NCBI GenBank assembly: GCA_000993275.1
Contig: LBVV01000009.1
Coordinates: 2,897-66,896 of the forward strand
DNA from: a candidate division CPR2 bacterium GW2011_GWC2_39_10
GTDB taxonomy: Bacteria > Patescibacteriota > CPR2
DNA length: 64,000 nt
Direction: 5' to 3'
Position numbers and translations under genes: made by a program. This document shows, one piece after another, positions 2,133 to 51,724 of this stretch; within the stretch, counting starts at the first letter, position 1; each line of letters begins with the position of its first letter. The notes beneath the pieces were generated by a model. The model was not told where the DNA came from. It did not search any database and saw only the letters and a program-made list of their open reading frames with translations.

Positions 2133-2161
2133 TTGCAAAAAAAGAAAAAAGTAGGTATAAT
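2133..2161 (+). promoter_or_regulatory. Sigma70-type promoter for tuf-rpsJ
   Basis: ttgcaa (2133-2138), 17-nt spacer, tataat (2156-2161), about 95 nt upstream of the tuf ATG. Confidence 0.55.
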
Positions 2162-2256: not shown

Positions 2257-3438
2257 ATGGCAGAAAAATTTCAAAGAAATAAAACCCATGTCAATGTTGG
2301 TACAATTGGTCACGTTGACCATGGAAAAACCACACTTACTGCTGCTATTACCCACGTACTTGCTAAAAAGGGTCTAGCTAAAGCAGAGAAATACGAAGAT
2401 ATCGATAATGCCCCCGAAGAAAAAGAAAGAGGCATTACTATCGCAACTCATCACTCTGAATATGAATCAGAGAAAAGACATTATGCTCACGTGGATTGTC
2501 CGGGTCATGCCGACTATGTTAAAAACATGATTACCGGTGCAGCCCAAATGGACGGTGCTATTTTAGTTGTATCTGCGGCTGACGGGCCAATGCCTCAGAC
2601 CAGAGAGCATATTCTTTTAGCTCACCAAGTTGGTGTTCCACATATGGTTGTTTACATGAACAAAACCGATATGGTTGACGATCCAGAATTAATTGACTTG
2701 GTAGAAATGGAAATTAGAGAGCTTCTATCCAAATACGAATTTCCCGGTGATGACACCCCAATTATTAAAGGATCAGCCCTAAAGGCACTAGAGGGCGATA
2801 AAGACGCCGAACAGTCAATTCTGGACTTAATAGATGCCGTAGACTCTTTTATACCGGATCCAAAACGAGAAATCGACAAACCTTTCTTAATGGCAGTTGA
2901 AGATGTTTTCTCAATTAAAGGACGAGGTACAGTTGCTACCGGAAGAATTGAAAGGGGCAAAGTTAAGGTTAATGAAGAAGTTGAAATAGTAGGTATTCAC
3001 CCAACCAGAAAAACAGTTGTAACCGGCGTTGAAATGTTTAGAAAACTTTTAGACGAAGGTTTCGCCGGCGATAACGTTGGACTACTACTTCGAGGCGTTG
3101 AAAAAGACGACATCGAAAGAGGCCAGGTTGTTATCAAGCCGGGCTCTATTACTCCTCATACAGAATTTGACAGTGAAATATATATTCTAACCAAGGATGA
3201 AGGCGGACGACATACCCCTTTCTTCAAGGGTTACAAACCTCAGTTTTATATTAGAACAACTGACGTTACCGGTGAAGTTACTTTACCTTCAGGTGTAGAA
3301 ATGGTTATGCCTGGCGATACGGTTAAATTAGGAATTAAGTTAATTGCTCCAATTGCAATGGAAGATGGAATGAGATTTGCAATCCGCGAAGGTGGTCGAA
3401 CCGTAGGCGCCGGAGTAGTAACTAAGATCATAAAATAA
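2257..3438 (+). CDS. tuf: Elongation factor Tu
   Basis: 393 aa. [11 protein letters not shown]-loop, [12 protein letters not shown], and the full EF-Tu domain II/III sequence. RBS gaaagg is upstream. Confidence 0.98.
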
Positions 3439-3463: not shown

Positions 3464-3799
3464 TTGACAGCACAAGCAAAAACCCCAGAAAAGACGAAGC
3501 AAAGGATAAGAATCAGGCTAAAAGCTTATGACCATAAGATTATTGATGAGTCATGTAAGCAAATTATTGAAACTGCGGCAAGAACAGGCGCTTTGGTTGC
3601 CGGACCGGTACCGCTTCCAACTCAACGGAATGTGATTACGGTTATCAGATCTCCGCATATCGATAAAAATTCCCGGGAACAGTTCGAGATGAAAACCCAT
3701 AAAAGGCTGATTGACATCCTTGATCCCGCTCCAAAAACAATAGATTCCCTAATGAATCTAAACTTACCGGCCGGTGTAGATATCGAAATTAAGATGTAG
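3464..3799 (+). CDS. rpsJ: 30S ribosomal protein S10
   Basis: TTG start 8 nt after aggag. [21 protein letters not shown]...[23 protein letters not shown] is typical S10. Confidence 0.95.
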
Positions 3800-3824
3800 A
3801 TAAATTAAGATGTAGATAACAAAA

Positions 3825-3854
3825 AAGAGTCAGGCAGTTGCCAGACTCTTTTTT
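3825..3854 (+). terminator. Rho-independent terminator after rpsJ
   Basis: aagagtcaggca / tgccagactctt stem (one mismatch) followed by tttttt. Separates rpsJ from the rest of the S10 cluster. Confidence 0.65.
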
Positions 3855-3995
3855 AATGTCAAATGTCAAATTACAAAATATTTAGTTATTGGCATTAATT
3901 AATATCATTTGGTGGTTATTTTTTTTGTTTTAATCAAACGATTGCGATTTTGCTTTTTGCTTTATATACTTATGATATAAATAAAAGAGGGTGAA

Positions 3996-6068
3996 ATGTT
4001 TTCTAAAATAAAATCCGGTTTTAAGTCGCATAAAAAATTAGTTGTTATTCTATTTTCGTCTTTTTTAATTTTAGGGCTATCGGGCGGAATTTATTATTTT
4101 GACTATTTTAGAGATTCCATAAGTCCGAACATAATATCTAAAAAAAAACCTACTCCTACTCCAAAACTTGAACCATTAAAAGTATCGGATAACAATCTTA
4201 AAAAGTTTTCTTCCTGCAGCACCTTAACTAGCGTTTTTGAAAACAGAAAAAAAGAGCAGCAAAACAGACTTATGGAATTTGCTGCAACGGCACCCGCAGA
4301 TCCTCCGGGCAAGGGCGGCGGAGGCGGCGAATATTCTGAAACCAATGTTCAGGTTGAGGGTGTAGATGAGGGAGATATCGTTAAAACTGATGGTGATTAT
4401 ATTTACACTATTGTTAAAGAGAAGGCCATTAAAATTGTTAAGGCCTTGCCTGCTAACAATATTTCGCTGTCTTCAACTATTAATTTCCCCGACAATTATG
4501 CCGTAAAAGAGTTATTTTTAGATGGAAATAAGTTGGTTGCTCTTGGAAATTCAGCAATCAAAGCCCGGGGCATTACAAATGTGCCGGAATGGTATTCGGA
4601 TTATAATTTTAATGAGGTTTACACTTTTATTAAAATTTGGGATATTACTGATCGGAATAATCCTAATCTGGTTCGTGACCTGCAGTATCAGGGTAATTAT
4701 TCGACTTCCAGAAAAATTAGCAGCTCGGTTTATGTGGTTGTAAATACTGCTCCGGATTTTGAAATTATTAATAAAGACGCTAAGGCTGACCAATATATTC
4801 CCAAAATATCCACGTCTGTTGGATCTTCTCAGTATAAGCCGGCTTGCGAATGTCAGGACGTGCATTATCTCACTTCCTTAAATTCAAAAAAGGAAACCAC
4901 CGAGGCAGAAGATATTAGGAATTTAAAAGATAGCAATTTTGTTTCGGTGATTACTATTAAGGCTCAAGATGTAAGCGCAGATCCGGACAAAAAAGTGATT
5001 GTTGCAAGTACCGATAAGGCTTATGCCTCAGCTAAAAATCTTTATTTAGCAGAGCCGCAATATCCGGAATTAACGACAAATGGGACAGTTTCGAATTTAA
5101 TTCCGGATAGCAATAATACGGCTATTCATAAATTTGCCCTTTCGGCAGAAAGAACCGATTATTTATCAAGCACTATAGTTCCGGGCGAAGTCTTAAACAA
5201 ATACTCGATGGACGAATATAACGATCATCTTAGAATTGCAACCACCAAGGGCAATGTGTGGAACCAAACCACAAAATCAACAAACAATTTGTATGTTTTA
5301 GATAAAAACTTTAAATTAGTGGGCAAAATAGAAGGCTTGGCCGAAGGGGAACATATCTATTCGGCAAGATTTGTGGGAGAAAGAGGCTATCTGGTTACAT
5401 TTAAAAAAGTAGATCCTTTTTTCACCCTGGACCTTAAAGATCCGGCCAGTCCCAAAGTGGTCGGTCAATTAAAGATTCCGGGTTATAGCGATTATCTACA
5501 TCCGATAGACGAAAACCATATTATAGGCATCGGAAAAAACACCATTGAAGCACAGCAGGAGTTAGAAAGCGAGCGAAGGGTTGATTTTGCCTGGTATCAA
5601 GGAATAAAAATGGCAATATTTGATGTGACCGATTTTGCAAATCCAAAGGAAATGCATAAGGTTACCATAGGCGATAGGGGAACGGATTCTTACGCCTTAC
5701 ATGACCCCAAAGCTTTTCTTTACGATAAAAAGAAAAATTTATTAGTCATTCCAATTTTGCTTGCCGAAATGTCCGAGACTCAGAAAAAGCAAGCGGAAGA
5801 TTGGGAATACGGCGCCAATACTTATCAGGGATCTTATGTTTATAATGTAACCCTAGATGCGGGTTTCGAACTTAGGGGCAGGGTCACTCATTATTCGGAA
5901 AATCATTTTAAGGATATCGAAAATAACATGTCATATTATTATTACGGCGACGATAAATCTATAGCCAGATCTTTATATATTGGTGATAATCTTTATACCG
6001 TCTCCAATGGTAAAATTATGGTTAATAATCTATCCAATTTATCCAAACTAAAAGAACTAAGTCTATAG
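3996..6068 (+). CDS. Secreted or membrane-anchored beta-propeller domain protein (Beta_propel-family-like)
   Basis: 690 aa with an N-terminal TM/signal segment. C-terminal half has the family signature YSARFVGERGYLVTFKKVDPFFTLDLKDPASPKVVGQLKIPGYSDYLHPIDENHIIGIG. Family call is from memory of the motif. Confidence 0.7.
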   Translation: MFSKIKSGFKSHKKLVVILFSSFLILGLSGGIYYFDYFRDSISPNIISKKKPTPTPKLEPLKVSDNNLKKFSSCSTLTSVFENRKKEQQNRLMEFAATAPADPPGKGGGGGEYSETNVQVEGVDEGDIVKTDGDYIYTIVKEKAIKIVKALPANNISLSSTINFPDNYAVKELFLDGNKLVALGNSAIKARGITNVPEWYSDYNFNEVYTFIKIWDITDRNNPNLVRDLQYQGNYSTSRKISSSVYVVVNTAPDFEIINKDAKADQYIPKISTSVGSSQYKPACECQDVHYLTSLNSKKETTEAEDIRNLKDSNFVSVITIKAQDVSADPDKKVIVASTDKAYASAKNLYLAEPQYPELTTNGTVSNLIPDSNNTAIHKFALSAERTDYLSSTIVPGEVLNKYSMDEYNDHLRIATTKGNVWNQTTKSTNNLYVLDKNFKLVGKIEGLAEGEHIYSARFVGERGYLVTFKKVDPFFTLDLKDPASPKVVGQLKIPGYSDYLHPIDENHIIGIGKNTIEAQQELESERRVDFAWYQGIKMAIFDVTDFANPKEMHKVTIGDRGTDSYALHDPKAFLYDKKKNLLVIPILLAEMSETQKKQAEDWEYGANTYQGSYVYNVTLDAGFELRGRVTHYSENHFKDIENNMSYYYYGDDKSIARSLYIGDNLYTVSNGKIMVNNLSNLSKLKELSL

Positions 6069-6205
6069 TAAAAAAACCGCCCCATCATGGGATAGTCTCT
6101 CTCATTTGAGTCTCAATTGGATTACTAAAATCTCCATCTAAATGACTTAAGGCTGGCAGGAAATCGGAAAGACAACTAAAAAAATGAGTGTAACCCAGGC
6201 CCTTT

Positions 6206-6302
6206 GTAACTGCTCATAATCGTCATTGCGAACGATCCGGCAGCCGCCGGAGAGTGCGGCAATCTTGTTTCAAGCAGAGGAGATTGCTTCGTTTCACTCG
6301 CA
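6206..6302 (+). repeat. 97-nt intergenic repeat, family A copy 2
   Basis: Differs from 1722-1818 only at one position (cataat vs cacaat). Confidence 0.9.
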
Positions 6303-6400
6303 AAAAACTGCTTAAAATGTGCTAAAATTTAAAATCAAACAAAAATGCAACTTTACAATTAAATGAAAAATGTCAGCACTGATTTAGGAGGGGAATTAAA

Positions 6401-6766
6401 ATGAAAAGGTTGAATGATTTTAGTATCTATGCGAAATTGATTATTTTCGGAATAATGATTGAAATTTTAAGTTTATTTCTGCCGATGGTTTTTATTAAAT
6501 TATTGCCCTACGTATTGCCCAACATAGTAACTGTGTCGGAAATCCCATTTCCAGTTTTAATGATTCTCAATCTTCGGCCAACATTAGGCCATTATGGATT
6601 TATTTGCATCATGGCTGGATTAGATTATTACTTTTGGCGCAATAATAGCCCTGATGAAGAAAATGGACATTTATATCTATCAAGGCTAGTCATTAAGCAT
6701 TCCCCCGCATTGTTAATGGTTATTTACTCGATAGACTATTTCATTTTTACACGTTTTATTAATTGA
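6401..6766 (+). CDS. Hypothetical small membrane protein
   Basis: 121 aa with several hydrophobic segments. Strong RBS taggagggg 8 nt upstream. No recognisable family. Confidence 0.5.
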   Translation: MKRLNDFSIYAKLIIFGIMIEILSLFLPMVFIKLLPYVLPNIVTVSEIPFPVLMILNLRPTLGHYGFICIMAGLDYYFWRNNSPDEENGHLYLSRLVIKHSPALLMVIYSIDYFIFTRFIN

Positions 6767-6819
6767 TGAATGTCGGCACATTTCGCACTGGCAAGATAAC
6801 TGTTTTGAGGAGGTCTATT

Positions 6820-7341
6820 ATGAAAACTACAAGCAGTGGAATTATCGTTGCGCGGCATGTAATCGAGACGATTAAATTGGCACCGATTAGGATAGATCAT
6901 GATCTTGAGTTTGCGAGAATAATAGAGGGCTTATACGGCCACGATTCTGGCATCAACTACACCAATATCCCTGATTGCAACGCAGGAAAAAATGGCATCG
7001 AGGAGGCAAGCCTTTTTCTTGTCAGGCCCGTTCCTTATTGGCAGGTGTGGTTAACAGACAGGGTTTTGTCATTGCTTGATGAAGCAGGATTTGTCCAAGA
7101 AGAGTTTCCTACCCTGTTTTCGCTCATGGGTCATGCCGAAGAACTTTGCAAAGCACGTATTGATAACATCTCGGCTCTTGGTGAGCACTCTCGTTGGAGG
7201 CATTCCAACGGCAATATCTTTGCTCCGTTTATGTCGCTATACGCTGCTAAATTCGGTTATCCTGCATTTTGCGAATTCGAAAGTAAATTTATCGGGAGCA
7301 AATGGTCGGAAGATAATTGGCTTGTTGTCCGCCACAAGTAG
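6820..7341 (+). CDS. Hypothetical protein (orphan)
   Basis: ORF 6763-7341. I prefer the ATG at 6820 because gaggagg lies 6 nt upstream. No family recognised. Looks G+C-richer than neighbours by eye. Confidence 0.5.
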   Translation: MKTTSSGIIVARHVIETIKLAPIRIDHDLEFARIIEGLYGHDSGINYTNIPDCNAGKNGIEEASLFLVRPVPYWQVWLTDRVLSLLDEAGFVQEEFPTLFSLMGHAEELCKARIDNISALGEHSRWRHSNGNIFAPFMSLYAAKFGYPAFCEFESKFIGSKWSEDNWLVVRHK

Positions 7342-7397
7342 TTTTTAAGACATAGGAATTTGAATTATTAATTCTTTAATTCCTTCGGTCCCAAACG

Positions 7398-7433
7398 GGC
7401 GATTTTGACTTTAAGTTGAGATCGCCTTTTTTT
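7398..7433 (+). terminator. Putative terminator after the orphan gene
   Basis: ggcgat ... atcgcc stem with a long loop, followed by ttttttt. Confidence 0.4.
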
Positions 7434-7496
7434 ATTGTTGTTTTTAACCCATAAACCCATTGACCAATTAACCCATCCCACCCGCTAATTTTCTTC

Positions 7497-7525
7497 TTGA
7501 CAAATTGAGCTTAAAACCTTATACT
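7497..7525 (+). promoter_or_regulatory. Sigma70-type promoter for the rplC operon
   Basis: ttgaca (7497-7502), 17-nt spacer, tatact (7520-7525), then a ~117-nt leader before rplC. Confidence 0.6.
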
Positions 7526-7642
7526 TTTTAAGGTAATATTTTATAAAGAAATACTTACAGTATCAAGCGGGGAGTTGGAGCAGTCCGGCGAATGTCGGAA
7601 ACTTTCTAACTGTCCGAAATATTTGTTTGTCTAGGAAACAAA

Positions 7643-8269
7643 ATGAAAGCAGTTTTAGGTAAAAAAGTTGGAATGACCAGAATTTTCGCCGAAAACGGTA
7701 AAATTACACCCGTTACGGTTATTGAAGTTACTCCAAATACTGTCATCCAAATTAAAACCGCAGGCAAAGACGGATACAATGCAGTTCAAATTGGTTTCGG
7801 TAACGTAAAAAATATAAAAAAGCCTCAGGCCGGTCACTTAAAAAAGGCAAAAGTTGAAGCAAAATATTTAAAAGAAGTCCCCTCAATTGACATAGAAACT
7901 GCCGAAGGGCAGGAGCCTAAGGAGCTAAAAGTAGGGGATCAAATTTTAGTTGACATCTTTAACTCCGGCGATAAGGTTGAAGCTGTCGGTGTTTCCAAGG
8001 GCAAGGGCTTTGCCGGCACCATTAAAAGACACAACTTTAGTAGAGGCCCAAAATCGCACGGCTCTCATAATGTCAGAAAACCCGGTTCTATCGGAGCCAT
8101 GTTTCCGCAGCACGTTTTCAAGGGTCAGAAAATGCCTGGAAGAATGGGACATATTCAGGTTACCACCAAAAATTTAGAAATAGTTACAGTAGATAAAGAG
8201 AATAATTTATTAACAATTAAAGGCGCTGTGCCCGGACCGGCAAAAGGGCTAATAGTAATTAGAGGTTAA
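7643..8269 (+). CDS. rplC: 50S ribosomal protein L3
   Basis: MKAVLGKKVGMTRIF...GVSKGKGFAGTIKRHNF. First gene of the restarted S10-cluster order. Confidence 0.97.
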   Translation: MKAVLGKKVGMTRIFAENGKITPVTVIEVTPNTVIQIKTAGKDGYNAVQIGFGNVKNIKKPQAGHLKKAKVEAKYLKEVPSIDIETAEGQEPKELKVGDQILVDIFNSGDKVEAVGVSKGKGFAGTIKRHNFSRGPKSHGSHNVRKPGSIGAMFPQHVFKGQKMPGRMGHIQVTTKNLEIVTVDKENNLLTIKGAVPGPAKGLIVIRG

Positions 8270-8270
8270 A

Positions 8271-8945
8271 ATGAAAGCTCCGGTTTACGACATTAAAACC
8301 GATAAAAAAGAAGACAAAACCTTAAAAGACAAAGTTTTCGGTTTGGAAATAAATAAGCCGCTTTTGTCTGAAGTTGCTATTTTAATGCAGTCAAACCTTA
8401 GAGTCGGTTCCGCTAAAACCAAAACCAAGGGTGAAATTTCCGGCGGCGGCAGAAAACCGTGGAAACAAAAAGGTACCGGCAGAGCAAGAACCGGATCTAT
8501 CCGAAATCCAATTTGGCGAGGCGGCGGCACAACTTTTGGGCCAACCGGCGAACAAAATTTTAAAAAGCTTATTCCAATTAAGAAAAGAAGAGCTGCTCTT
8601 TTAAATGCGCTATCTTTAAAAGCTAAAGAAAAGCAAATTATTATGATAAAAGAAGTTCTAGTTAAAGAACCAAAAACCAAAGTAATGACTGAGGTTTTAG
8701 CCAAGATTCCTGTTTCCGGCCGAATTTTAATGGTTTTACCGGAACATAATGAAGTTTTTTACAAATCCGGCCGAAATATTCCAAATCTAAAAATGGTTGT
8801 TTATAAAGAGTTAAATACTCTGGAAGTTCTGCGTGCCGACTACTTAGTTTTAGTTAACGGCGTAGAAGCAAAACTGGAAGAGCTTGCGGTAGCCGGTAAA
8901 CCGAAAGAGCTTGCATTGAGTAAACCTAAGGGAGCGGCAAAATAA
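8271..8945 (+). CDS. rplD: 50S ribosomal protein L4
   Basis: GGGRKPWKQKGTGRARTGSIRNPIWRGGGTTFGP motif. Conserved position. Confidence 0.97.
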   Translation: MKAPVYDIKTDKKEDKTLKDKVFGLEINKPLLSEVAILMQSNLRVGSAKTKTKGEISGGGRKPWKQKGTGRARTGSIRNPIWRGGGTTFGPTGEQNFKKLIPIKKRRAALLNALSLKAKEKQIIMIKEVLVKEPKTKVMTEVLAKIPVSGRILMVLPEHNEVFYKSGRNIPNLKMVVYKELNTLEVLRADYLVLVNGVEAKLEELAVAGKPKELALSKPKGAAK

Positions 8946-12069: not shown

Positions 12070-12355
12070 ATTAAAAGGGACGGTAGTCTCCGATAAAATG
12101 GATAAAACAGCAGTCGTAAGAGTTGACAGTCTAAAAACTCATCCGATTTACAAAAAAAAGTTTAAGGTTTCCAAAAAATATAAAATTCATGATGAAGGGA
12201 ATGTCTTAAAGGTTGGTGATGTTGTGGAGTTTGTCGAAACCAGACCAATTTCTAAAGACAAATCATGGGCGCTTTCCAAAGTATTAGAACAGGCTTCTTC
12301 GACAAGCTCACCTCGTGGTGACTCGCCGGAACCAGAACAGGCCAAGGGAGAATAA
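12059..12355 (+). CDS. rpsQ: 30S ribosomal protein S17 (with acidic/Ser-rich C-terminal tail)
   Basis: Preferred start is ATG 12059 (gaggag 8 nt upstream), giving [22 protein letters not shown]...[28 protein letters not shown]. The tail [22 protein letters not shown] is extra. Confidence 0.92.
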
Positions 12356-22190: not shown

Positions 22191-22451
22191 TGTCAATCCG
22201 GACATTCCTTTAGAAAATACAATCAAGTGATCCGGAATCCAGAAAGAAAAAAATATCAATCCTGTCCTTTTCTGAAGCAAAAAGTAACTGCTCACAATCC
22301 TGCATTTTATGTTCATATATTATATTAAACTATTTATGTCATACCAAACTTGATTTGGGATCCACTTGTTCAGTTAAATATCGAGCTTTCTGGATTCCGG
22401 ATCAAGTCCGGAATGACAAGAAAGGGGGGGGTGATTGTGAGCAGTTACAGC
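22191..22451. repeat. Composite repeat patch (family B long and short copies plus the gtaactgctcacaatc module in both orientations)
   Basis: 22191-22245 tgtcaatccggacattcc...gatccggaatccagaaag. 22284-22299 gtaactgctcacaatc. 22386-22420 is the reverse complement of gtcattccggacttgatccggaatccagaaag. 22433-22448 gattgtgagcagttac. Confidence 0.85.
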
Positions 22452-22798
22452 AAAAAATATTGATTTTTGGCCATATTTATGATAAAATATAAAATCAATC
22501 AAAATGTAACTTTGCAAAAAAATAAAAAAAGTGGAATGAATTTAGGAGGGGATTCGGATGTAATTGAAATGGTATCTCGTTTTGTTTGCAAGTTTCGTTG
22601 TGTGCGGACTGTTTTATTGGTACATAAGAAAGATCAATAAGGTAAGGGCTTTAGAACTCTGGAGATTACAGATTACAGATTCTATTATGGAAAATGGACT
22701 TTCAACAGTAGAAATGGGGGAACGAGGCGCGTAGGTAGAAATCCAACTTGCTTAAGATGTGTAAATTGTTTATGATAATTTAGTAAATAGGAGCAAGA

Positions 22799-25213: not shown

Positions 25214-25414
25214 CGTCATTCCGGACATTCATTTAAAAAGTACAATCATTTGATCCGGAATCCATTCTTTTTTAAAGTACTTTCTTTTCCACTTTTGGCA
25301 GCAAAAGTGGAGCAAAACTGCCGACACGCTACAAAATCGGATTAGCACATAAGGCTCATTCACTCTCAAAAAGTCGAACTCGTCGTGCATCTCGATTTTT
25401 CCGCTACAGTCGGA
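25214..25414 (+). repeat. Family B long hairpin (25214-25267) followed by family C element copy (25287-25414)
   Basis: 25287-25384 is identical, by my reading, to 31450-31547 (ttccacttttggcagcaaaagtggagcaaaactgccgacacgctacaaaatcggattagcacataaggctcattcactctcaaaaagtcgaactcgtc). Both end in ...tttttccgctacagtcgga. Confidence 0.9.
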
Positions 25415-31403: not shown

Positions 31404-31593
31404 TGTCATTCCGGACTTGATCCGGAATCTATTATTTCTTTATTTCTATTTCCACTTTTGGCAGCAAAAGTGGAGCAAAACTGCCGACACGCTACAAAAT
31501 CGGATTAGCACATAAGGCTCATTCACTCTCAAAAAGTCGAACTCGTCATCTTCTCTTCGCCAAGTGCATCTCGATTTTTCCGCTACAGTCGGA
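31404..31593 (+). repeat. Family B short hairpin (31404-31432) followed by family C element copy (31450-31593)
   Basis: gtcattccggacttgatccggaatc, then the same ~98-nt core as 25287-25384 with a 16-nt insertion (atcttctcttcgccaa) before gtgcatctcgatttttccgctacagtcgga. Confidence 0.9.
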
Positions 31594-39655: not shown

Positions 39656-39771
39656 TGTCATTCCAAACTCGACTACAGAATCTAGGAAGAATGGATTCCT
39701 GGTCAAGCCTGCCTCGCTTTGCTCATCAAGGCGGGCCAGGAATGACAAGTTGGGATTGTGAGCAGTTACAG
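39656..39771. repeat. Family B variants plus gattgtgagcagttacag module
   Basis: tgtcattccaaactcgactacagaatctagg. The reverse-orientation copy ends ...ggccaggaatgacaag. gattgtgagcagttacag (39754-39771) is identical to 22433-22450. Confidence 0.8.
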
Positions 39772-51518: not shown

Positions 51519-51724
51519 TTCTACTTTTTGGCAGCAAAAAGATAGCAAAAACTGCCGACAAAGCTACAAAATTGGGTTAGGACTGAGTCTTGTTCACTCT
51601 CAAAAAGTCGAACTCGTCGTAACCTCCTCAAACACAACTTTTTGAGATGTTCCCTGCGACATCCGACCTCAGCTTCGCCGAAGGCGAGACGGGAGTCCAC
51701 CACAATTTTTACGCTACAGTCGGA
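51519..51724 (+). repeat. Family C intergenic element, long copy
   Basis: ttctactttttggcagcaaaaagatagcaaaaactgccgacaaagctacaaaattgg...ttcactctcaaaaagtcgaactcgtc, then a ~90-nt insertion, then tttttacgctacagtcgga. Same ends as the copies at 25287 and 31450. Confidence 0.85.

Follow-up and report, generated by a model that had tools for sequence, protein, structure and literature searches.

The rpsJ–rplC junction was examined in a 64,000-nucleotide (nt) stretch of DNA, hereafter the window, from the candidate division CPR2 bacterium GW2011_GWC2_39_10 (contig LBVV01000009.1, positions 2,897 to 66,896 of the forward strand). The textbook case of frozen gene order is the S10–spc cluster, whose 16 proteins usually serve as markers for placing candidate-phyla bacteria on the tree of life. 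In the window the genes run fusA (partial)–tuf–rpsJ–[3843 nt]–rplC–rplD–rplW–rplB–…, and our comparisons indicate that this junction is probably an ancestral operon boundary, at which two transcription units are separated by a spacer with variable cargo and the second unit opens with a leader RNA that would act as an attenuator. The features on which this interpretation rests are as follows.

Positions 2133-2161, plus strand: predicted promoter of the tuf–rpsJ unit, TTGCAA-17-TATAAT, with 10 of 12 matches.
Positions 2257-3438, plus strand: tuf, from an open reading frame (ORF) call and a profile match.
Positions 3464-3799, plus strand: rpsJ, with a TTG start and a match to PF00338 (E=3.5e-38).
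Positions 3786-3817, plus strand: a 16-nt perfect tandem duplication, AAATTAAGATGTAGAT twice, over the rpsJ stop codon.
Positions about 3822-3854, plus strand: predicted intrinsic terminator after rpsJ, AAAGAGTCAGGCAGTTGCCAGACTCTTT then TTTTAATG, a stem-loop with a U-run.
Positions 3855-3995, plus strand: AT-rich spacer, containing a block AATGTCAAATGTCAAATTAC in common with the relative L006 and the ribosome-binding site (RBS) of the first cargo gene.
Positions 3942-3970, plus strand: promoter-like site TTGCGA-17-TATACT in this AT-rich spacer, from a promoter scan.
Positions 7497-7525, plus strand: predicted rplC-operon promoter, TTGACA-17-TATACT, with 11 of 12 matches, the best promoter-like site in 12 kb.
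Positions 7532-7642, plus strand: rplC leader of approximately 110 nt, with a hairpin at 7568-7616 and a U-rich tract at 7620-7631.
Positions 7643-8269, plus strand: rplC (PF00297), which heads the tightly packed rplC-rplD-rplW-rplB... cluster.

For comparison, relatives were obtained via S10 (80 GTDB species), via L3 from metagenomes and via L3 homologues. Five CPR2-type loci, given here with the identity of their proteins to those of the window and with the lengths of their ORFs in amino acids (aa), have the following rpsJ–rplC junctions.

L006, the closest relative (S10 97%, L3 92%): a gap of 1051 nt with one unrelated 220-aa ORF.
L007, CPR2 GWC2_39_35 (S10 92%, L3 69%): a gap of 1936 nt with two ORFs, a minus-strand one of 136 aa for a membrane protein and one of 131 aa.
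L114 (L3 67%): a gap of 302 nt with no gene.
L115 (L3 63%): a gap of 272 nt with no gene.
L116 (L3 62%): a gap of 207 nt with no gene.

The first unit would comprise a conserved promoter, tuf, rpsJ and an intrinsic terminator. In the window, tuf and rpsJ lie 25 nt apart with no terminator in between, and the same distance is 22–29 nt in L006, L007 and L114 and 7–11 nt in L115 and L116. The core of the predicted tuf promoter, CTTGCAAA-N17-GTATAAT or GTATACT, is invariant across four CPR2-type species (the window, L006, L007 and L114). The predicted terminator after rpsJ (3823-3854) has a 12-pair stem with one mismatch and six G-C pairs, followed by TTTTTT, and was missed by a stock terminator scan because of its single A·A mismatch. 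A terminator is predicted at the same position after rpsJ in L006 and L007 and also in L114, L115 and L116, each with a stem sequence different from that of the window. These data agree with two statements made in a preliminary description of this DNA, namely that rpsJ ends at 3799 and is followed by a terminator, which we place at about 3823-3854, and that rpsJ is likely to be co-transcribed with tuf, as suggested by the short spacing without an intervening terminator, the conserved tuf promoter and the terminator behind rpsJ.

The second unit would start from the near-consensus sigma-70 promoter and run through the leader of approximately 110 nt into rplC-rplD-rplW-rplB and the rest of the cluster. 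This predicted promoter is kept in six other CPR2-type species (L006, L007, L089 and L114-L116), and in L114 the block around its core, ATTTTCTTCTTGACAA…TATACTTT, is the same as that of the window. Promoter and leader are conserved together across species in which L3 is only 59-92% identical to that of the window. Such conservation upholds the earlier assignment to rplC, at 7643, of a near-consensus promoter (7497-7525) and a leader, and with it the suggestion that the remaining operon has an independent promoter.

The three junctions that contain no gene are especially informative. L114, L115 and L116 each retain the rpsJ terminator, a TTGACx-17-TATAxT promoter, and the leader hairpin with its U-tract, so the two-unit architecture exists without any cargo. 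Where there is cargo, it occupies the AT-rich spacer that follows the rpsJ terminator and precedes the rplC promoter. More distant L3 relatives mostly have gaps of ~35–340 nt and hold no cargo gene between rpsJ and rplC. Saccharibacteria present a similar junction: in 72 species the distance from rpsJ to rplC ranges from 134 to 4336 nt with a median of 1390 nt, is below 60 nt in none and exceeds 500 nt in 62, whereas rplC and rplD are approximately 8 nt apart in the same 72 loci. Because the relatives with empty sites keep the signals, and because the junction is open in 72 of 72 Saccharibacteria, the boundary appears to predate the cargo; on this comparison the split is ancestral and only the cargo is recent.

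The preliminary description had instead proposed that an accessory cassette invaded the junction. In its full form, this alternative holds that a 3.8-kb accessory cassette recently entered an S10 operon that was still intact and co-transcribed, and that the downstream genes later gained a promoter of their own. It can draw on the fact that none of the sampled relatives shares the cargo of this species, on a miniature inverted-repeat transposable element (MITE) with target-site duplications inside the cargo, and on the 16-nt duplication at the rpsJ stop codon, which has no counterpart in L006 or L007 and could be the footprint of an earlier recombination event. It is largely refuted by the empty sites of L114-L116, which already hold terminator, promoter and leader, and it also has to face the retention of promoter and leader between species with such divergent L3 sequences, as well as cargo that lacks an integrase, att-like repeats and any anomaly of composition. 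We consequently regard it as very improbable. What stands of the original proposal is that the cargo is species-specific; what falls is the idea of an intact operon that was split, since the empty relatives already have the signals. The synteny comparison that had been suggested as a check gave a correspondingly divided answer, in that the split is conserved in relatives, as an ancient feature would be, and the inserted genes are not.

The content of the gaps varies in Saccharibacteria and also in the CPR2-type species, where the cargo ORFs of L006 and L007 match no Pfam, NCBIfam or PHROGs family. Clustering of the Saccharibacteria gap proteins gave 108 groups, of which 95 are singletons. The most widespread of the recurrent products is a membrane protein of ~95 aa (88-114 aa), which has no Pfam family, occurs in the gap of 37 of the 72 species (e.g. 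L008 11354-11644 and L016 10554-10829) and is usually the final ORF before the rplC promoter. NUDIX hydrolases are found in 12 of the gaps, and there are a few smaller clusters besides. The distance from tuf to rpsJ is also loose in these bacteria, with a median of 524 nt. Their predicted rplC promoter has a -35 box TTGACA and a −10 box TAATCT. A strongly conserved block, TGTAGAATTTGCAACA, was also noted directly ahead of this -35 box, some 40 nt upstream (e.g. L016 10830-10850), and may represent an UP element or a binding site for a transcription factor.

The part of the second unit that we consider of most interest is the leader itself. In the window its hairpin consists of outer stems P1 and P2, a short P3 (AGU/ACU), an inner hairpin P4 and an AA bulge, and the fold has z=-3.1 against shuffles. 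The leaders of the CPR2-type species share one plan, comprising P1, P2, an unpaired A, P3 (AGU/ACU), P4, an AA or AU bulge and the U-tract. In an alignment of seven such species (A10), pairing is seen in 94.1% of cells and compensatory change at 13 of 22 pairs; none of 500 shuffles equalled this, and control pairings with slid partners gave 26–44%.

In Saccharibacteria, lining up the 200 nt upstream of rplC revealed a hairpin of the form CUUGGUG…gcAGGUCUACC–(AACAG loop)–GGUAGAAACCgc…CACCAAG, followed by the U-run CAUUUUUAUG. A covariance model (R1), built from ten Saccharibacteria sequences (alignment A6) with a hand-drawn structure, found one match per locus in 65 Saccharibacteria loci, always on the plus strand between rpsJ and rplC, at a median of 38 nt and a maximum of 210 nt before the rplC start. 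In the alignment of these 65 matches (A8), 92.4% of cells pair versus 77.3% when shuffled, and none of 500 shuffles was as good. Moreover, both partners have changed at 17 of 21 pairs, in 211 cells where 63 were expected, and slid partners pair in 23–46%. Set within these covarying stems are internal-loop nucleotides that are invariant or nearly so: AGGUC, GAAACC and the loop AACAG in Saccharibacteria, and AGU...AA-ACU in the CPR2-type leaders. Plain MAFFT alignments of the leaders analysed by RNAalifold gave zero pairs because the stems were out of register, and a set of only four sequences gave weak covariation; covariance-model and N-padded hand alignments took their place.

A second covariance model (R2) was built from the 65 Saccharibacteria sequences only. 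Its top match in the 4-kb region of the window is at 7563–7632 (15.8 bits, E=0.015), and it matches the leaders of four of the seven CPR2-type species, namely the window, L007, L115 and L116, at 14.8–18 bits. In addition, eight Saccharibacteria leaders have A-U in place of G-C at the first P3 pair, as in the CPR2-type leaders. The two groups of leaders are probably homologous on this sequence comparison, subject to the points on R2 given below.

No Rfam 15 family reached its gathering score in the window or in seven relative loci, and nothing relevant appeared in the leader regions at E<=10. Likewise, literature searches on a split S10 operon or a ribosomal protein leader in the candidate phyla radiation or Saccharibacteria returned nothing relevant. 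As expected of an autoregulatory leader, the element occupies a position in the 5' untranslated region (5'UTR), between promoter and first gene, and has a conserved structure backed by covariation. We therefore describe the rplC leader as a structured, attenuator-like RNA and as a well-supported candidate for a ribosomal protein autoregulatory leader of Saccharibacteria and CPR2.

The hairpin comes after the −10 box, has a U-run at its end and combines invariant or nearly invariant internal loops with covarying stems, which is the pattern of a ligand-controlled attenuator. In the mechanism that we propose, the long imperfect hairpin with its AGU / AA-ACU elements and the U-tract behind it would work as a transcription attenuator under the control of one of the operon's ribosomal proteins, and an excess of that primary rRNA-binding protein would stabilize the terminator form of the leader. 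In E. coli, uL4 acts on the S10 leader together with NusA to terminate transcription and also blocks translation, a system restricted to the Gammaproteobacteria (PMC3616713). By analogy, uL4 would be the first candidate for the sensor, with uL3, uL23, uL2 and uL22 as alternatives. Like the E. coli S10 leader, the element described here is a 5' leader whose structure includes a terminator-like hairpin and a U-run, and it stands before an operon for uL3/uL4/uL23/uL2 and the following proteins, for which feedback control is presumed; unlike it, it precedes rplC rather than rpsJ, has no Rfam match, and its sensor protein is a candidate.

A different function for the hairpin and U-tract has to be weighed here. 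They might not sense a protein at all and might serve instead as a constitutive insulator terminator, an RNA stabilizer, a processing site or a target of translational control. The hairpin does resemble an ordinary terminator, the U-tract of the window is weak, and protein sensing by the leader is a proposal made by analogy. Against an insulator or other constitutive element, the hairpin lies downstream of the conserved -10 box and hence, as predicted, inside the transcript, and the upstream unit of the window is already closed by a separate predicted terminator at 7397-7437. Furthermore, invariant or nearly invariant internal-loop nucleotides between covarying stems are typical of a specific ligand site and not of a generic terminator. 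On balance we consider these alternatives unlikely, and prefer a protein-sensing attenuator.

Several points nevertheless weigh against the interpretation of the junction as an old boundary with an attenuating leader. The U-tract of the window is interrupted (AAAUAUUUGUUUG) and begins 4 nt past the stem, and intrinsic termination at this site may be weak. Both alignments lean towards structure, A10 having been made by hand with N-padding and A8 having been fitted by a model. R2 misses the leaders of L006, L089 and L114, and unrelated hairpins, including ordinary terminators, reach 12-17 bits with it, so that the homology of CPR2-type and Saccharibacteria leaders is not statistically established. 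The promoters, the terminators and attenuation are predictions from sequence, and a protein that binds the leader is a candidate only. Finally, the relatives were sampled by similarity of S10 and L3 and not across the phylogeny, and the S10 genome scan yielded mostly Saccharibacteria.

Separation of rpsJ from the L3 operon has parallels elsewhere. In the str-operon arrangement, S10 stands behind an elongation-factor gene in archaea, cyanobacteria and plastids, and as there, rpsJ in the window travels with tuf and would be transcriptionally separate from the L3-L4-L23-L2 block. Unlike that arrangement, the two units here have stayed neighbours, with a variable spacer of accessory genes between them. 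As to the leader, a published set of 20 new ribosomal protein leaders includes an Archaeoglobi L4 candidate upstream of rplC-rplD-rplW-rplB (Eckert and Weinberg 2020, PMC7247131), and this paper makes no mention of Saccharibacteria, TM7 or candidate phyla. The Archaeoglobi candidate resembles ours in that it precedes an operon starting with rplC, with S10 excluded; it differs in belonging to another domain of life, and the Rfam scan gave no match to it at our loci.

We then examined what the spacer holds in this strain. Between the rpsJ terminator and the second promoter, the short AT-rich spacer would tolerate added DNA, and it is found either empty or with unrelated, mostly ORFan genes; here it carries the gene of a β-propeller protein that would be secreted or anchored, a MITE, and a two-gene ORFan unit with a promoter module and a terminator of its own.

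Positions 3996-6068, plus strand: cargo gene 1, encoding a 690-aa protein with a PF09826 β-propeller and an N-terminal membrane anchor or signal sequence.
Positions 6320-6394, plus strand: promoter/5'UTR/RBS module of 75 nt (TGcTAAAAT ... GGAGGGG), in common with 22480-22552.
Positions 6401-6766, plus strand: cargo gene 2, orf121, from an ORF call, a 121-aa ORFan and predicted membrane protein.
Positions 6820-7341, plus strand: cargo gene 3, orf173, a 173-aa ORFan, with its ATG behind GAGGAGG.
Positions 7397-7437, plus strand: predicted terminator closing the cargo unit, a 14-pair stem followed by T7, from the terminator scan.

The 690-aa protein matches PF09826 (Beta_propel) with E=1.4e-156 and 522.7 bits over profile positions 1-494 of 495, which bears out its earlier description as a β-propeller protein, and its N-terminus consists of a basic stretch followed by a hydrophobic one. 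It is identical to UT66_C0055G0004, its nearest homologue being otherwise 48% identical, and its named top matches include many DPANN archaea together with other bacteria. The homologues that were checked lie in unrelated gene contexts, with no habitual linkage to ribosomal protein genes.

The other two genes, orf121 and orf173, form a unit of their own, which runs from the module directly to the right of the MITE to the strong predicted terminator at 7397-7437. Previously described as orphans, both proved to be true ORFans: orf121 matched only itself when 1.84 billion representatives were read exhaustively by HMMER, orf173 matched only itself among 5.8 billion clusters, and neither belongs to a Pfam, NCBIfam or PHROGs family. 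For orf173 the ATG at 6820 is the favoured start, a 192-aa version from the TTG at 6763 being less likely; AlphaFold2 without an alignment gave this protein a predicted local distance difference test score (pLDDT) of 35.5, which is unusable. The module ahead of orf121 is indeed shared with the region at 22.5 kb, with 80% identity to 22480-22552 over 76 nt (E=8.6e-9). In the sibling assembly L001 a TTTACA -35 box lies 17 nt upstream of the module, inside the 39 nt that are missing from the window. At the other copy, positions 22548-22575, the shared RBS GGAGGGG is followed by a minimal ATG TAA ORF and then by a TTG-initiated ORF of ~57 aa that resembles a small membrane protein.

The preliminary description had suggested a comparison of the composition of the insert with that of its flanks, and no difference was found: tetranucleotide composition across 3–8.5 kb has z values of −0.9 to +0.6, ranking 24–111 of 125 windows of the scan. 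The GC content at third codon positions of the β-propeller gene and orf121 is like that of the ribosomal protein genes, and only orf173 is somewhat higher, at 0.46. The cargo is compositionally native. Examination of ORFs, of Pfam, NCBIfam and PHROGs matches, and of repeat and Rfam scans revealed no integrase, transposase, tRNA gene, phage gene, or flanking direct or att repeat in the gap. The cargo has none of the marks of an integrative mobile element or genomic island, i.e. an integrase or transposase, att repeats and deviant composition, and carries no mobile-element hallmark save one MITE. The junction resembles integration hotspots and genomic islets in that the content between conserved flanks varies by species; it differs from hotspots in lying inside the most conserved gene cluster of bacteria, and in having native cargo with no integrase, tRNA gene or phage gene.

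Cargo turnover would probably occur by homologous recombination, with the conserved flanking genes as homology arms, a route made plausible by the natural competence shown in Saccharibacteria, which are genetically manipulable and in which the rpsJ promoter has been used as a tool only (PMC10633639). A bolder synthesis, which we offer tentatively and think somewhat doubtful, is that Saccharibacteria and CPR2-type bacteria share an undescribed class of attenuator before rplC that senses a ribosomal protein and replaced the S10 leader after rpsJ became detached, and that the spacer is a ‘cargo bay’ in which homology arms in tuf-rpsJ and rplC let naturally competent cells exchange lineage-specific surface genes and ORFans where expression is high. 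A lineage with an open, gene-collecting spacer inside the S10–spc cluster alters the use of synteny and the assumptions of contig binning. The spacer may also offer a natural neutral or high-expression site in Saccharibacteria, now that these can be manipulated genetically (PMC10633639). The most valuable by-product of the analysis is the leader, a well-supported candidate ribosomal protein leader RNA in Saccharibacteria and CPR2, which provides a testable candidate for the balancing of ribosomal proteins in reduced-genome bacteria, where Rfam 15 and the literature searches gave none for these groups.

The 97-nt repeat previously noted in the gap is present, and its actual length in the window is 98 nt (6205-6302, 99% identical to 1721-1818 in the fusA–tuf spacer); it is a truncated copy of a 123-nt MITE, whose family is represented in the window as follows.

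Positions 6198-6302, plus strand: gap copy, with the left target duplication GGCCCTTT at 6198-6205 and the element from 6206, its right end truncated in the window.
Positions 1722-1818: twin copy in the fusA–tuf spacer, with target duplication TTTGTCAT.
Positions 22284-22448: third family member, 165 nt, with a different interior and target duplication AGCAAAAA.
Positions 39756-39769: a lone right end.

The full element of 123 nt has 14-nt terminal inverted repeats (GTAACTGCTCACAA/TTGTGAGCAGTTAC) and 8-bp target duplications. It is seen complete in the sibling assemblies L001-L003, which are the only source for the right ends of the 123-nt copies; the copies in L001, at 7702-7824 and 12211-12333, have identical bodies. 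Terminal inverted repeats, target duplications, small size (123-165 nt), no ORF and several copies (three full and one partial) together identify the family as MITEs. At both copies of the shared promoter module (6320-6394 and 22480-22552) a MITE lies immediately ahead of the -35 box.

We also considered a possibility raised in the preliminary description, that the halves of the region were misjoined during assembly at the 98-nt repeat. The NCBI contig LBXQ01000055 breaks off right at the repeat (window 6304) and has another small deletion in the first MITE copy, so that it and the window differ in small deletions at the right end of the repeat, and orf173 is on a separate NCBI contig, UT66_C0034. 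The whole gap is spanned in the same gene order, however, by three assemblies (ENA ERZ909595, ENA ERZ27254739 and JGI 3300025309), which cross the full-length repeat with near-identical sequence: from the gap repeat towards rplC they match the window at 100% identity, and on the other side they depart from it by <=5 mismatches and a 25-nt gap. Two shorter contigs (one NCBI and one Logan) agree with the window order over their reach. L001–L003 differ from the window at two indels only, besides <=5 mismatches, the first MITE copy of the window lacking 25 nt and the second 39 nt at the right end. The differences at the MITE ends point to local problems of assembly or to variation in the population; there is no doubt about the gene order, and a misjoin as the origin of the split is extremely improbable.

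Some further observations were made around the locus. Directly after the predicted tuf promoter, the tuf 5'UTR contains a hairpin-forming block, AGTGGAAGAGTAAAGTCGTCCAC, at 2172-2194, which is well kept in the window, L006 and L007, with L114 retaining the GTCC core only. The fusA–tuf spacer is also variable: in the window it measures 816 nt (1441-2257) and contains the MITE and a GTCATTGCGAA...GCGGCAATCT palindromic repeat, in L007 it measures 2036 nt (6760-8796) with a minus-strand 231-aa ORFan, in L114 868 nt (4294-5162), and in L115 and L116 115-164 nt. Two metagenomic loci with L3 48-52% identical to that of the window, L091 and L094, lack rpsJ, tuf and fusA in the 8 kb upstream of rplC, and at 7800-8000 show a promoter-like site of their own together with a hairpin (GUCCC...GGGAC) and U-tract ahead of rplC. 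A second repeat family, of 99 nt, occurs in the window at 25286-25384, 31449-31547 and 51520-51618, with two copies 100% identical and the third 62%, and each copy precedes a related 33-nt block (at 25385, 31564 and 51695).

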